DNA of 64,000 nucleotides from Escherichia coli (GTDB lineage: Bacteria; Pseudomonadota; Gammaproteobacteria; Enterobacterales; Enterobacteriaceae). Location of the stretch: the NCBI RefSeq assembly GCF_003334305.1, contig NZ_QOWS01000009.1, one strand, 5' to 3'. The notes beneath the pieces are model-generated. The model had not been told where the DNA came from, made no database searches, and saw only the letters and a program-made list of their open reading frames with translations. Positions 32,766-63,518 of the stretch are shown piece after piece. The position numbers were made by a program, and so were the translations under genes. Each line of letters starts with the position of its first letter. Within the stretch, counting starts at the first letter, position 1.

Positions 32766-34169
32766 GTGTCACTTTCGCTTTGGCAGCAGTGTCTTGCCCG
32801 ATTGCAGGATGAGTTACCAGCCACAGAATTCAGTATGTGGATACGCCCATTGCAGGCGGAACTGAGCGATAACACGCTGGCCCTGTACGCGCCAAACCGT
32901 TTTGTCCTCGATTGGGTACGGGACAAGTACCTTAATAATATCAATGGACTGCTAACCAGTTTCTGCGGAGCGGATGCCCCACAGCTGCGTTTTGAAGTCG
33001 GCACCAAACCGGTGACGCAAACGCCACAAGCGGCAGTGACGAGCAACGTCGCGGCCCCTGCACAGGTGGCGCAAACGCAGCCGCAACGTGCTGCGCCTTC
33101 TACGCGCTCAGGTTGGGATAACGTCCCGGCCCCGGCAGAACCGACCTATCGTTCTAACGTAAACGTCAAACACACGTTTGATAACTTCGTCGAAGGTAAA
33201 TCTAACCAACTGGCGCGCGCGGCGGCTCGCCAGGTGGCAGATAACCCTGGCGGTGCCTATAACCCGTTGTTCCTTTATGGCGGCACGGGTCTGGGTAAAA
33301 CTCACCTGCTGCATGCGGTGGGTAACGGCATTATGGCGCGCAAGCCGAATGCCAAAGTGGTTTATATGCACTCCGAGCGCTTTGTTCAGGACATGGTTAA
33401 AGCCCTGCAAAACAACGCGATCGAAGAGTTTAAACGCTACTACCGTTCCGTAGATGCACTGCTGATCGACGATATTCAGTTTTTTGCTAATAAAGAACGA
33501 TCTCAGGAAGAGTTTTTCCACACCTTCAACGCCCTGCTGGAAGGTAATCAACAGATCATTCTCACCTCGGATCGCTATCCGAAAGAGATCAACGGCGTTG
33601 AGGATCGTTTGAAATCCCGCTTCGGTTGGGGACTGACTGTGGCGATCGAACCGCCAGAGCTGGAAACCCGCGTGGCGATCCTGATGAAAAAGGCCGACGA
33701 AAACGACATTCGTTTGCCGGGCGAAGTGGCGTTCTTTATCGCCAAGCGTCTACGATCTAACGTACGTGAGCTGGAAGGGGCGCTGAACCGCGTCATTGCC
33801 AATGCCAACTTTACCGGACGGGCGATCACCATCGACTTCGTGCGTGAGGCGCTGCGCGACTTGCTGGCATTGCAGGAAAAACTGGTCACCATCGACAATA
33901 TTCAGAAGACGGTGGCGGAGTACTACAAGATCAAAGTCGCGGATCTCCTTTCCAAGCGTCGATCCCGCTCGGTGGCGCGTCCGCGCCAGATGGCGATGGC
34001 GCTGGCGAAAGAGCTGACTAACCACAGTCTGCCGGAGATTGGCGATGCGTTTGGTGGTCGTGACCACACGACGGTGCTTCATGCCTGCCGTAAGATCGAG
34101 CAGTTGCGTGAAGAGAGCCACGATATCAAAGAAGATTTTTCAAATTTAATCAGAACATTGTCATCGTAA
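32766..34169 (+). CDS. dnaA: Chromosomal replication initiator protein
   Basis: GTG start giving [33 protein letters not shown]; 467 aa; AAA+ Walker [11 protein letters not shown]. Confidence 0.97.
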
Positions 34170-38811: not shown

Positions 38812-38910
38812 GCCTGATGCGCTACGCTTATCAGGCCTACGAAAATCTTGCAATGTATTGAATTTTCATGATTTTGTAGGCCGGATAAGGCGTTCACGCC
38901 GCATCCGGCA
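38812..38910. repeat. BIME (two inverted REP elements) downstream of gyrB
   Basis: gcctgatgcgctacgcttatcaggcctac and gtaggccggataaggcgttcacgccgcatccggca in opposite orientations. Confidence 0.8.
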
Positions 38911-47185: not shown

Positions 47186-48433
47186 ATGGCGGGAACCGTT
47201 TTGTATCAGGACCCCGCCATGAAACAGATAACCTTTGCTCCCCGTAATCACCTGCTCACCAATACCAATACCTGGACGCCCGACAGCCAGTGGCTGGTAT
47301 TTGACGTGCGTCCTTCTGGCGCGTCGTTTACCGGCGAGAGCATTGAGCGTGTGAATATCCATACCGGCGAGGTCGAGGTTATCTATCGCGCGTCACAGGG
47401 CGCACACGTCGGCGTGGTGACCGTTCATCCGAAGTCAGCGAAATATGTTTTCATCCATGGCCCGGAAAATCCTGATGAAACATGGCATTACGACTTCCAT
47501 CATCGGCGCGGAGTCATTGTTGAAGGCGGCAAGATGAGTAACCTTGATGCGATGGATATTACCGCGCCGTATACGCCTGGAGCGCTGCGCGGCGGCAGCC
47601 ATGTGCATGTCTTTAGCCCGAACGGTGAAAGGGTGAGCTTTACCTATAACGACCATGTAATGCATGAACTCGATCCGGCGCTGGATTTGCGAAACGTCGG
47701 GGTTGCTGCGCCGTTTGGCCCGGTCAACGTACAAAAGCAGCATCCGCGTGAATACAGCGGTAGCCACTGGTGCGTGCTGGTGAGCAAAACCACGCCCACG
47801 CCGCAGCCTGGCAGCGATGAAATCAATCGTGCTTATGAAGAAGGATGGGTAGGAAATCACGCGCTGGCATTTATTGGCGACACACTTTCGCCAAAGGGCG
47901 AGAAAGTGCCGGAGCTGTTTATCGTTGAGTTACCGCAAGATGAAGCTGGCTGGAAAGCGGCAGGTGATGCGCCGTTAAGTGGAACGGAAACCACCCTGCC
48001 CGCGCCACCGCGCGGCGTCGTGCAGCGACGTTTAACCTTTACCCACCATCGGGCTTATCCGGGGTTAGTCAACGTCCCGCGCCACTGGGTGCGCTGTAAT
48101 CCGCAGGGTACGCAAATCGCGTTTTTAATGCGTGATGATAACGGCATTGTGCAACTGTGGCTTATCTCGCCACAGGGCGGCGAGCCGCGCCAGTTAACCC
48201 ATAACAAAACGGATATTCAGTCTGCATTTAACTGGCATCCGTCAGGAGAATGGTTGGGCTTTGTGCTGGATAATCGAATTGCTTGTGCCCATGCGCAAAG
48301 TGGCGAGGTTGAGTATTTAACCGAAAACCACGCCAATCCGCCTTCTGCGGATGCCGTGGTCTTCTCACCGGATGGTCAATGGCTGGCGTGGATGGAAGGT
48401 GGCCAGCTGTGGATCACCGAAACTGATCGCTAA
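47186..48433 (+). CDS. yidR: DUF3748-family beta-propeller-like protein
   Basis: About 415-aa ORF in the conserved position; start approximate. Confidence 0.78.
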   Translation: MAGTVLYQDPAMKQITFAPRNHLLTNTNTWTPDSQWLVFDVRPSGASFTGESIERVNIHTGEVEVIYRASQGAHVGVVTVHPKSAKYVFIHGPENPDETWHYDFHHRRGVIVEGGKMSNLDAMDITAPYTPGALRGGSHVHVFSPNGERVSFTYNDHVMHELDPALDLRNVGVAAPFGPVNVQKQHPREYSGSHWCVLVSKTTPTPQPGSDEINRAYEEGWVGNHALAFIGDTLSPKGEKVPELFIVELPQDEAGWKAAGDAPLSGTETTLPAPPRGVVQRRLTFTHHRAYPGLVNVPRHWVRCNPQGTQIAFLMRDDNGIVQLWLISPQGGEPRQLTHNKTDIQSAFNWHPSGEWLGFVLDNRIACAHAQSGEVEYLTENHANPPSADAVVFSPDGQWLAWMEGGQLWITETDR

Positions 48434-48434
48434 A

Positions 48435-48767
48435 TCAGTTATCAGGCATTCTGGCCGGTGGAATAACCGCATTGGTGGCTTGCGCGTTGGCTTCGCTTTT
48501 TTCAACGCGCGAGCGCACCGAGCTGTCTTTGCGGAACACATCCCACGGCAGTAAAAGCGTGTCCATCACAGCGGTAAACGGCATATCGAGAATCGCCAGC
48601 GACTTAGTGCCCCAGTTGGTTTCATCGTCGCCAATCATGGTGGCGCTGGCGCGGGTGCCGGGATACGTTCCTTCTTTCCCCCCGGTATGGGACATCACGC
48701 TGGAGCATCCTCCGAGTAATGTCATTCCGCTGCATATCATGAACGCTAACAACACATTTCTTATCAT
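48435..48767 (-). CDS. yidQ: Small lipoprotein
   Basis: Start set at MIRNVLLAFMICSGMTLLGGCSS (lipobox); about 110 aa. Confidence 0.75.
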   Translation of the reverse strand: MIRNVLLAFMICSGMTLLGGCSSVMSHTGGKEGTYPGTRASATMIGDDETNWGTKSLAILDMPFTAVMDTLLLPWDVFRKDSSVRSRVEKSEANAQATNAVIPPARMPDN

Positions 48768-48941
48768 AATAAATTCATCTGTTGATCGTGGGTGTTGGCC
48801 TGATGAGTTATAGCGATCCCTTGCTGAAAATAACATCATCATTACGTCGCTCTGTGGCGGCTATCGCACTTTAACGTTTCGTGCTGCCCCCTCAGTCTAT
48901 GCAATAGACCATAAACTGCAAAAAAAAGTCCGCTGATAAGG

Positions 48942-48970
48942 CTTGAAAAGTTCATTTCCAGACCCATTTT
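48942..48970 (+). promoter_or_regulatory. sigma32 heat-shock promoter of ibpAB
   Basis: cttgaaa -35, spacer, then cccatttt -10 (sigma32 consensus TTGAAA ... CCCCATnT), about 100 bp upstream of ibpA. Confidence 0.7.
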
Positions 48971-49071
48971 TACATCGTAGCCGATGAGGACGCGCCTGAT
49001 GGGTGTTCTGGCTACCTGACCTGTCCATTGTGGAAGGTCTTACATTCTCGCTGATTTCAGGAGCTATGATT

Positions 49072-49485
49072 ATGCGTAACTTTGATTTATCCCCGCTTTA
49101 CCGTTCTGCTATTGGATTTGACCGTTTGTTTAACCACTTAGAAAACAACCAGAGCCAGAGTAATGGCGGCTACCCTCCGTATAACGTTGAACTGGTAGAC
49201 GAAAACCATTACCGCATTGCTATCGCTGTGGCTGGTTTTGCTGAGAGCGAACTGGAAATTACCGCCCAGGATAATCTGCTGGTGGTGAAAGGTGCTCACG
49301 CCGACGAACAAAAAGAGCGCACCTATCTGTACCAGGGCATCGCTGAACGCAACTTTGAACGCAAATTCCAGTTAGCTGAGAACATTCATGTTCGTGGCGC
49401 TAACCTGGTAAATGGTTTGCTGTATATCGATCTCGAACGCGTGATTCCGGAAGCGAAAAAACCGCGCCGTATCGAAATCAACTAA
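49072..49485 (+). CDS. ibpA: Small heat shock protein IbpA
   Basis: 137 aa from [56 protein letters not shown]. Confidence 0.97.
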
Positions 49486-49596
49486 TTCCCTAAGGCCGCC
49501 TGGCGCGGCCTGACATCTCCATGCTCGCCGTCAGGGAGCATATGCGAATCTTCGGATTTGCAGGTACTTACTCGCTTCTTAGAAGGAGAAATGACT

Positions 49597-50025
49597 ATGC
49601 GTAACTTCGATTTATCCCCACTGATGCGTCAATGGATCGGTTTTGACAAACTGGCCAACGCACTGCAAAACGCCGGTGAAAGTCAGAGCTTCCCGCCGTA
49701 CAACATTGAGAAAAGCGACGATAACCACTACCGCATTACCCTTGCGCTGGCAGGTTTCCGTCAGGAAGATTTAGAGATTCAACTGGAAGGTACGCGCCTG
49801 AGCGTAAAAGGCACGCCGGAGCAGCCAAAAGAAGAGAAAAAATGGCTGCATCAAGGGCTTATGAATCAGCCATTTAGCCTGAGCTTTACGCTGGCTGAAA
49901 ATATGGAAGTCTCTGGCGCAACCTTCGTAAACGGTTTACTGCATATTGATTTAATTCGTAATGAGCCTGAACCCATCGCAGCGAAGCGTATCGCTATCAG
50001 CGAACGCCCCGCGTTAAATAGCTAA
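49597..50025 (+). CDS. ibpB: Small heat shock protein IbpB
   Basis: 142 aa from [24 protein letters not shown]. Confidence 0.97.
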
Positions 50026-50040
50026 CTAGCTATTCTCTTT

Positions 50041-50069
50041 GCCCCGCCATTCTGGTGGGGCTTTTTTTA
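50041..50069 (+). terminator. Intrinsic terminator after ibpB
   Basis: gccccgccattctggtggggc hairpin followed by tttttttat. Confidence 0.75.
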
Positions 50070-50220
50070 TCTTTCTTCTTCAACAATGCGTTAAATTTCG
50101 CCTGTTTAAGATATTTCGGCACGTTCTTTCCCGTGATAATGTGCGCTATAAGGCAAATCTGCTTCACCGATTCAGCCATAATCCGTAGCAATTAAAATGT
50201 TATCTCAAGAGAAATGGACG

Positions 50221-51882
50221 ATGAGTGATATAGCATTAACGGTCAGTATTCTGGCTTTGGTGGCAGTCGTCGGTTTGTTTATCGGCAACGTCAAATTTCG
50301 CGGCATAGGATTAGGTATTGGCGGCGTGCTGTTTGGTGGGATCATCGTCGGCCATTTTGTTTCTCAGGCGGGGATGACATTAAGTAGCGATATGCTGCAT
50401 GTTATTCAGGAATTTGGCCTGATCCTGTTCGTTTATACTATCGGGATTCAGGTAGGGCCGGGCTTCTTTGCCTCATTGCGCGTCTCCGGATTACGCCTCA
50501 ACCTGTTTGCTGTTCTGATCGTCATCATCGGTGGTCTGGTTACCGCCATCCTGCATAAACTGTTTGATATTCCACTGCCGGTAGTGCTGGGGATTTTCTC
50601 CGGTGCGGTTACCAATACGCCAGCGCTGGGGGCAGGGCAGCAGATTTTGCGCGACCTGGGTACACCAATGGAAATGGTCGATCAGATGGGGATGAGTTAC
50701 GCGATGGCGTATCCATTCGGCATTTGCGGGATTTTGTTCACCATGTGGATGTTGCGGGTTATTTTCCGCGTCAATGTCGAGACAGAAGCTCAGCAGCACG
50801 AGTCTTCACGCACCAATGGCGGCGCGCTGATCAAGACTATCAATATTCGCGTTGAGAACCCTAACCTGCATGATTTAGCCATTAAAGATGTACCGATTCT
50901 CAACGGCGACAAAATTATCTGCTCGCGTCTGAAACGCGAAGAAACCCTAAAAGTTCCTTCGCCAGATACCATTATCCAACTGGGCGATTTGCTGCATCTG
51001 GTGGGGCAGCCAGCGGATTTACATAATGCGCAACTGGTGATTGGTCAGGAGGTCGATACTTCGCTGTCCACGAAAGGCACTGATTTGCGCGTCGAGCGTG
51101 TGGTGGTCACCAATGAAAACGTGCTCGGAAAACGTATTCGCGACCTGCACTTTAAAGAACGCTATGACGTTGTTATCTCGCGCCTGAACCGTGCCGGGGT
51201 CGAACTGGTCGCCAGTGGCGATATCAGCCTGCAGTTCGGCGATATCCTCAATCTGGTGGGGCGTCCGTCCGCAATTGATGCCGTTGCCAATGTGCTGGGG
51301 AATGCGCAGCAAAAACTGCAACAGGTTCAGATGCTGCCAGTGTTTATTGGCATCGGGCTTGGCGTATTGTTAGGTTCTATTCCCGTCTTTGTGCCTGGGT
51401 TCCCGGCCGCGTTGAAACTGGGGCTGGCGGGCGGTCCGCTGATTATGGCGTTGATCCTCGGGCGTATCGGCAGTATCGGCAAGCTGTACTGGTTTATGCC
51501 GCCAAGTGCCAACCTCGCGCTGCGGGAGCTGGGGATCGTGCTGTTCCTCTCGGTCGTTGGTCTGAAATCTGGTGGGGATTTTGTGAATACCCTGGTCAAT
51601 GGCGAAGGGCTAAGCTGGATTGGTTATGGTGCCCTGATCACCGCCGTTCCGCTGATTACTGTTGGCATTCTGGCGCGGATGTTAGCCAAAATGAATTACC
51701 TGACCATGTGCGGGATGCTGGCAGGTTCCATGACCGATCCTCCGGCGCTGGCGTTTGCTAATAATCTTCATCCAACCAGTGGTGCGGCGGCGCTCTCTTA
51801 CGCCACTGTCTATCCGTTAGTGATGTTTCTGCGCATTATCACCCCCCAATTACTGGCGGTGCTCTTCTGGAGTATCGGTTAA
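50221..51882 (+). CDS. yidE: Putative transporter (AAE family with central TrkA-C-like domains)
   Basis: 553 aa from [25 protein letters not shown]; two membrane halves flanking a soluble region. Confidence 0.85.
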
Positions 51883-63336: not shown

Positions 63337-63442
63337 ATATTTGGACAAAACGCAAACTGTGATCGATACTCAACTATGCCCTAAATACGTCAAAATTCGT
63401 GCCGAAATTGCGCGTTCTGCGCGGAACACGTATACTTTCAGT

Positions 63443-63518
63443 GTTGACATAATACAGTGTGCTTTGCGGTTACCAGCCGCAGGCGGCTGATGAAACCTCG
63501 CTCCGGCGGGGTTTTTTG
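63443..63518 (+). ncRNA. istR: Antitoxin sRNA IstR-1 (boundaries approximate)
   Basis: gttgacataatacagtgtgctttgcggttaccagccgcaggcggctgatgaaacctcgctccggcggggttttttgtt matches the remembered IstR-1 sequence; a TATACT -10-like hexamer lies at 63431-63436; ends in a hairpin plus U-run. Confidence 0.75.

Follow-up and report, generated by a model that had tools for sequence, protein, structure and literature searches.

A sigma-32 promoter and ROSE-like RNA thermometer leader at the ibpAB locus of an Escherichia coli lineage with a one-base leader deletion

Introduction

The hallmark of ROSE-like RNA thermometers is a U(U/C)GCU motif that pairs with the Shine-Dalgarno (SD) sequence, and the leader of Escherichia coli ibpA is one of the two best-studied elements of this kind (PMC3669281). 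In reporter constructs with a temperature-neutral promoter, expression under the ibpA leader increases about 4-fold between 25 °C and 42 °C (PMC3669281). It forms three stem-loops, of which SL3 masks the SD, and expression is abolished when SL3 is strengthened (bioRxiv 10.1101/2020.04.20.050740; PMC10474464; PMC10410725). IbpA also represses its own translation via the leader, and aggregates titrate IbpA away (bioRxiv 10.1101/2020.04.20.050740; PMC10474464; PMC10410725). At the level of transcription, ibpA is heat-induced and behaves as a member of the RpoH regulon (PMC9032294), and RpoH binds ibpAB in Salmonella (PMC11548764). The gene is a textbook case of layered heat-shock control, in which sigma-32 transcription, RNA melting and IbpA autorepression act together.

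Here we describe the ibpA promoter and leader carried by a 64,000-nt stretch of E. coli DNA (the window): the promoter motifs with their uniqueness and conservation, the Rfam match, the predicted fold of the leader, and the covariation of hairpins I and II. The ibpA promoter and ROSE leader are already known and annotated in RefSeq and Rfam. What is new is confined to the loss of one base, specific to this lineage, from the thermosensing hairpin.

Results

The locus around the promoter is the E. coli yidR-yidQ (minus strand) and ibpA-ibpB-yidE (plus strand) region, which was found in 5,420 of 5,426 complete E. coli genomes with a 1-kb query centred on the ibpA promoter and leader. The genes and promoter elements are as follows.

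48435-48767, minus strand: yidQ (RefSeq annotation of an identical strain)
48942-48948, plus strand: sigma-32-type -35 element CTTGAAA, matching the consensus at 7 of 7 positions (sequence; conserved in enterobacterial orthologues)
48963-48970, plus strand: sigma-32-type -10 element CCCATTTT (sequence, motif search and orthologues)
48972-48978, plus strand: putative transcription start zone, likeliest at A48974 (placed from the position of the -10 element)
49072-49485, plus strand: ibpA coding sequence, a small heat-shock protein of 137 aa (RefSeq)
49597-50025, plus strand: ibpB coding sequence, 142 aa (RefSeq)

The sigma-32 consensus combines a -35 CTTGAAA with a -10 CCCCATNT at a spacing of 13-15 nt. 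The plus strand of the window reads CTTGAAA-agttcatttccaga-CCCATTTT at 48942-48970, with a spacer of 14 nt. When the -10 element is taken in the frame ACCCATTT (48962-48969), it agrees with CCCCATNT at 7 of 8 positions and lies 13 nt after CTTGAAA (14 nt to CCCATTT). The pattern CTTGAAA-N12-16-CCCATNT has a single match on both strands of the 64 kb, against 0.01 expected from dinucleotide shuffles, and the promoter pattern was present in one of 100 such shuffles. The original prediction of a sigma-32-type -35/-10 pair is thus confirmed by a sole match in 64 kb where 0.01 were expected, with the same distance to ibpA in orthologues. Its estimate of about 100 nt to the ibpA start also agrees with the measured 101 nt: the ibpA ATG (49072) lies 101 nt past the last base of the -10 element, 49071 being the final base of the leader.

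To follow the promoter beyond E. coli, ibpA-type orthologues were gathered with a pattern of the coding start alone (11 protein letters), and upstream sequence played no part in the search. A loose -35/-10 regular expression matched 55 of 64 enterobacterial ibpA upstream regions, and in most of the matching orthologues the end of the -10 element lies 100-119 nt from the ATG. Among the nine leaders that the expression missed, those inspected retain CTTGAAA and have a degenerate -10 element. A phylogenetic footprint, the position of the motif being kept across orthologues, thus stands behind the promoter reading. A generic sigma-70 scan of 48400-50400 returned no promoter-like sites, so by that criterion there is no competing housekeeping promoter. 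The sequence also contains an A8 tract (48920-48927, plus strand) about 15 nt 5′ of the -35 element, an UP-element-like position, and comparable A/T runs are visible by eye ahead of CTTGAAA in a number of orthologues.

According to a secondary source (PMC3981793), the drawing of the K-12 thermometer in Waldminghaus 2009 spans 102 nt. If that figure ends with the AUG, the +1 position would be A48974.

Folding of 48976-49090 gave three hairpins in both the minimum free energy (MFE) and centroid structures, and the leader has an MFE of -36 kcal/mol (z-score -2.23 against shuffles). The elements of the leader are as follows.

48977-49015, plus strand: hairpin I, a stable 5′ hairpin with the apex GCC-UGAU-GGG (predicted dG -21.0 kcal/mol at 30 °C)
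49018-49039, plus strand: hairpin II, GACCUGUCC-AUUGU-GGAAGGUC with a bulged G (predicted dG about -10.5 kcal/mol, calculated as -10.45, at 30 °C)
49043-49068, plus strand: hairpin III, predicted to be thermolabile and to occlude the SD (predicted dG -6.45 kcal/mol at 30 °C and -4.05 kcal/mol at 42 °C)
49048-49052, plus strand: anti-SD UCGCU, an instance of U(U/C)GCU, with G49050 bulged (fold)
49059-49063, plus strand: Shine-Dalgarno sequence AGGAG, 8 nt before the ATG (sequence and fold)
49007-49078, plus strand: match to Rfam ROSE_2 (RF01832) over the full model, positions 1-73 of 73 (92.5 bits, E = 6.8e-21)

In hairpin III, C49047-U49048-C49049 and C49051-U49052 pair with G49063-A49062-G49061 and G49060-A49059, respectively. 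Both the predicted fold and the Rfam consensus structure line leave G49050 unpaired, a prediction in each case, and the structure line of ROSE_2 spans hairpin III. Since the fold pairs AGGAG with UCGCU, the family-defining U(U/C)GCU motif covers the SD. An SD-occluding hairpin had been expected in this leader, and folding returned one, with UCGCU and its bulged G set against AGGAG, rather than a leader free of such a hairpin.

The ROSE_2 score of 92.5 bits stands against a gathering score of 65, and the match was obtained again when the search was repeated on the whole window. The match occupies the 5′ UTR of ibpA, an alpha-crystallin-type small heat-shock gene, and reaches as far as its start codon; RefSeq places a ROSE sequence_feature at the same position just 5′ of ibpA (strain H15). 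ROSE-like elements have two to four hairpins, the 3′-proximal one containing the SD; the leader has three. Judged by the sequence-level features that define it, all of which are present, the leader is a member of the known ROSE-like family. The further claim of the original prediction, a long 5′ UTR with a ROSE-like thermometer, is supported by the ROSE_2 score, the RefSeq feature and the SD-occluding fold.

We then compared the predicted structures at 30 °C and 42 °C. Hairpin III is the weakest of the three at 30 °C (-6.45 kcal/mol, compared with -10.45 and -21.0 kcal/mol), which makes the SD hairpin the weak element, as published for K-12. At 42 °C the isolated hairpins I, II and III have predicted dG values of -16.6, -7.9 and -4.05 kcal/mol, respectively. 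In the full ensemble of a 115-nt context, the SD is paired with a probability of 0.92 at 30 °C and 0.89 at 42 °C. Full exposure of the SD (five bases) costs 6.5, 4.9 and 4.4 kcal/mol at 30 °C and 4.9, 3.7 and 3.4 kcal/mol at 42 °C, respectively, in three of four 3′ contexts, and the cost is nearly unchanged in the fourth. Calculated from these costs, the probability of an open SD is about 1.5 to 10 times higher at 42 °C than at 30 °C, depending on context. The expected occlusion at low temperature was therefore recovered and weakens on warming, but a sharp switch did not appear, the SD remaining about 0.9 paired at 42 °C. The nearest-neighbour model shows occlusion with gradual weakening rather than a switch, a property of the model and no proof of function. 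The shallow predicted melting agrees with the gradual, leaky thermometer described in the literature.

Conservation of the leader was assessed in a MAFFT alignment of 60 non-identical enterobacterial leaders. RNAalifold recovered the apical stem of hairpin I, with compensatory changes at five pairs, and hairpin III. It missed hairpin II because of loop-length indels in the alignment; hairpin II was recovered, with compensatory changes, when the fold of the window was projected onto the alignment. Under this projection 83.9% of cells are paired, compared with 75.9% in shuffles and at most 51% with slid partners, and the covariation score is 0.292, compared with 0.161 in shuffles and no more than 0.093 with slid partners; because the projected structure was taken from a sequence within the alignment, it has a built-in advantage over the slid controls. 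Across the 60 orthologues, the apical helix of hairpin I has compensatory changes at 6 of 9 pairs and 92% of its cells paired, and hairpin II has them at 4 of 9 pairs with 90.9% of cells paired. In the same 60 sequences, the six pairs at the SD/anti-SD core either do not change at all or change just to G-U, with no compensatory changes, so covariation is silent on the key helix of hairpin III. Hairpin III is supported instead by the constancy of this core, by the Rfam model and by published probing. Conservation is poor at its three basal pairs among the 60 orthologues. Beyond this set, the U(U/C)GCU motif occurs in 117 of 118 ibpA-type upstream regions of other genomes.

Particular bases of the upstream hairpins are also conserved. 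The GCC-loop-GGG apex of hairpin I (48998-49009) is invariant in all 60 enterobacterial leaders, and the arms of hairpin II, CUGUCC and GGAAGG (49020-49037), are at least 90% conserved, the GGAAGG arm being SD-like. The three-part signature of apex and both arms occurs in 69 of 118 ibpA-type leaders, among them leaders from Rhodobacterales and Aeromonas; no shuffle contained it. This sequence conservation exceeds the needs of pairing, and the bases may be recognition elements for IbpA autorepression.

Such bases are of interest for a different weighting of the leader's functions, in which it is mainly an IbpA operator, with autorepression relieved by aggregates, and RNA thermosensing is a leaky, secondary layer. 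We regard this as possible though rather doubtful. Purified IbpA represses in a 5′ UTR-dependent manner, and mutations in SL1-SL3 abolish repression (bioRxiv 10.1101/2020.04.20.050740; PMC10474464). The thermometer has been called leaky at 37 °C (bioRxiv 10.1101/2020.04.20.050740), melting in silico is shallow, and the GCC/GGG apex and CUGUCC...GGAAGG arms are conserved far beyond pairing, as for a sequence-specific partner. However, an IbpA operator is compatible with a thermometer and does not exclude one. The 4-fold induction conferred by the E. coli leader was obtained under temperature-neutral promoters (PMC3669281), and the U(U/C)GCU/SD hairpin is common to ROSE elements whose melting has been probed directly (PMC3669281). 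We retain the reading of the leader as a ROSE-like thermometer that is also a target of IbpA.

The window departs from the K-12 leader at a single site.

49066-49068, plus strand: site of a 1-nt (T) deletion, K-12 CUAUUGAUUAUG, window CUAUGAUUAUG (MG1655 alignment)

Between a point well upstream of the -35 element and the ATG, a single missing T is all that separates the window from MG1655 (K-12 GGAGCUAUUGAUUAUG, window GGAGCUAUGAUUAUG). Comparison with the K-12 ibpA UTR, suggested alongside the original prediction, thus returned an otherwise identical sequence, but the T deleted from the SD-ATG spacer means that this is not strictly the K-12 UTR. An exact 61-mer centred on the deletion is present in 9 of 5,418 complete E. 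coli genomes, all others having at least one difference, and the same nine are the only genomes with 100% identity over the 1-kb query. The clade with the deletion includes strains A7, H15, A28, 41 and DETEC-E601. Across 24 kb, A7 matches the window completely and four other strains essentially so, and the next best genome is 99.4% identical. On these comparisons the deletion is real, and looks like a single event in one small clade. Sequencing error was rejected as its cause, as nine independent complete assemblies share the exact allele and five of them agree essentially throughout with the window across the 24 kb.

The deletion shortens the SD-ATG spacer from 9 to 8 nt and converts an in-frame TTG two codons before the start into ATG (49066). 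An AUG 2 nt past an SD is too close for normal initiation. The new AUG lies only 2 nt after the SD and is for that reason unlikely to be used; we rejected it as the start, and in strains with the allele RefSeq has ibpA begin at MRNFDL. The deletion also adds three basal CAU/AUG pairs to hairpin III, giving predicted energies of -6.45 kcal/mol at 30 °C (-5.58 kcal/mol for K-12) and -4.05 kcal/mol at 42 °C (-3.83 kcal/mol for K-12). At 30 °C the SD of the deletion allele is predicted to be fully open 2-10 times less often in all contexts tested.

The 9-nt spacer CUAUUGAUU is otherwise conserved in Escherichia, Citrobacter and Pseudocitrobacter. Among 64 enterobacterial leaders, the SD-ATG spacer is 9 nt in 28, 8 nt in 21 and 7 nt in 11, and an ATG also falls within the spacer in five other species. 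The predicted costs of SD opening for the two alleles fall inside the natural range, at ranks 16 and 8 of 64. A functional effect of the deletion is possible and, on this modelling, probably small, a rating that follows from the frequency of 8-nt spacers, the presence of ATG in other spacers and opening costs within the natural range.

A larger consequence would be a natural retuning of the thermometer and autoregulatory leader, by which the deletion has measurably altered the element, through tighter SD closure and repression in the cold, with changed basal IbpA, or through an altered start at the new AUG, and so produced a functionally distinct natural allele. This seems unlikely to us. The allele is rare (9 of 5,418) where the 9-nt spacer is otherwise conserved across three genera, the predicted hairpin III is more stable (-6.45 against -5.58 kcal/mol) with the SD open 2-10 times less at 30 °C, and strengthened SL3 silences reporters (bioRxiv 10.1101/2020.04.20.050740). 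However, the nine genomes apparently form one clade, which points to a single mutation event without a sign of selection. The 8-nt spacer is the second commonest (21 of 64), and the five other species share the feature of a spacer ATG. Both alleles lie inside the natural range of SD opening with an energy difference below 1 kcal/mol, and the new AUG sits 2 nt from the SD. A possible, probably small effect of the deletion is the reading we carry forward.

Downstream of ibpA, two further elements belong to the operon.

49571-49588, plus strand: predicted SD-occluding hairpin of the ibpB leader with a bulged G, CUC(G)CUUC-UUA-GAAGGAG (fold)
50041-50071, plus strand: intrinsic terminator of the ibpAB operon, a 9-bp GC-rich stem followed by a T7 run

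The hairpin of the ibpB leader, in the ibpA-ibpB intergenic region, is a second one with the same architecture as the SD hairpin of ibpA. It had no match to an Rfam family at E<=1 in a scan of 48000-51000. ibpB has been described as having its own thermometer (PMC10410725; bioRxiv 10.1101/2020.04.20.050740), and the predicted hairpin fits that description. Immediately after the ibpA stop codon lies a GC-rich stem-loop, GGCCGCC UGGCG CGGCC (49493-49511), without a T run; it may act in processing or stability, or as a terminator of part of the transcription between ibpA and ibpB. For the reported sigma-54 promoter of ibpB, a consensus scan (TGGCAC-N5-TTGCA, at most 3 mismatches) gave 185 matches where 214 were expected. 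Within ibpA, towards its 3′ end, lies TGGTAAATGGTTTGCT (49406-49421), with sigma-54-like GG-N10-GC spacing, about 190 nt upstream of ibpB. As the matches of the scan do not exceed expectation, this sequence is no more than a candidate for that promoter, indistinguishable from chance. Elsewhere in the window, Rfam matches above the gathering score are istR (63388-63517, plus strand, 149 bits), AsdA, an antisense RNA of the dnaA mRNA (33276-33356, minus strand, 102 bits), and the ES036/CssrF sRNA (38833-38875, minus strand, 44.8 bits).

Discussion

The region is very probably the regulatory region of ibpAB, uniting a sigma-32 promoter, a ROSE-like thermometer leader and a target of IbpA autorepression. 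In the mechanism that we propose, RNA polymerase with sigma-32 (RpoH) would recognise CTTGAAA and CCCATTTT and transcribe from about 48974. The resulting leader of about 98 nt would fold into three hairpins, with I and II serving as stable scaffolds. In the weak hairpin III, UCGCU with its bulged G would pair with the SD AGGAG and hinder 30S binding in the cold, and heat would progressively destabilise this hairpin so that ibpA is translated, in the manner of a ROSE-like thermometer. The same leader would be the target of IbpA autorepression until aggregates titrate IbpA. For sigma-32 dependence, temperature-dependent translation and IbpA binding we rely on published work with the K-12 allele, one base different, and we infer that the one-base-deleted allele behaves like K-12. 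A preprint on heat-adapted E. coli with IbpA mutations was set aside, as it does not concern the ibpA leader.

It is scarcely credible that the promoter hexamers arose as a coincidence and that the leader folds only to stabilise the mRNA: stable 5′ hairpins can protect transcripts (PMC3669281) but nothing specific favours this reading, whereas 0.01 promoter matches are expected, the motif stands at the same place in different genera, the Rfam score greatly exceeds its threshold, and the SD is occluded by the family-defining motif.

As a natural variant, the deletion allele could be used to test how finely the thermometer is set by the basal part of hairpin III and by the SD spacing.

Several described thermometers resemble this leader to different degrees. 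The FourU thermometer of Salmonella agsA likewise controls a small heat-shock gene via a melting SD hairpin. A FourU assignment was rejected, since the anti-SD is UCGCU and not four U, and no fourU-type Rfam match lies in the window. Rhizobial ROSE elements (RF00435; Bradyrhizobium hspA ROSE1) share the location in the 5′ UTR of a small heat-shock gene, the several hairpins, and a 3′ hairpin in which U(U/C)GCU with a bulged G lies on the SD. Unlike ibpA here, they usually have four hairpins and are not driven by sigma-32 and CTTGAAA in the same way. RF00435 gave no match in 48000-51000 at E<=1, where ROSE_2 and, weakly, ROSE_3 are the only ROSE families found.

The short Pseudomonas ibpA thermometers (ROSE_3, RF02523) belong to the same gene family and, like the leader here, place a stable hairpin before one in which U(U/C)GCU pairs with the SD. 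They differ in having two hairpins only, and ROSE_3 scores 20.5 bits here against a gathering score of 43. Many non-enterobacterial ibpA-type loci are of this short type, AUAUUGCU...GAGGAUAU. The closest system is the ibpA leader of K-12 (ROSE_2, RF01832; Waldminghaus et al. 2009), whose promoter elements (-35 and -10), hairpins I and II, anti-SD, SD and start codon all recur here without a single base changed. The window differs from it in a spacer of 8 rather than 9 nt, in the change of TTG to ATG, and in three extra predicted basal pairs in hairpin III.
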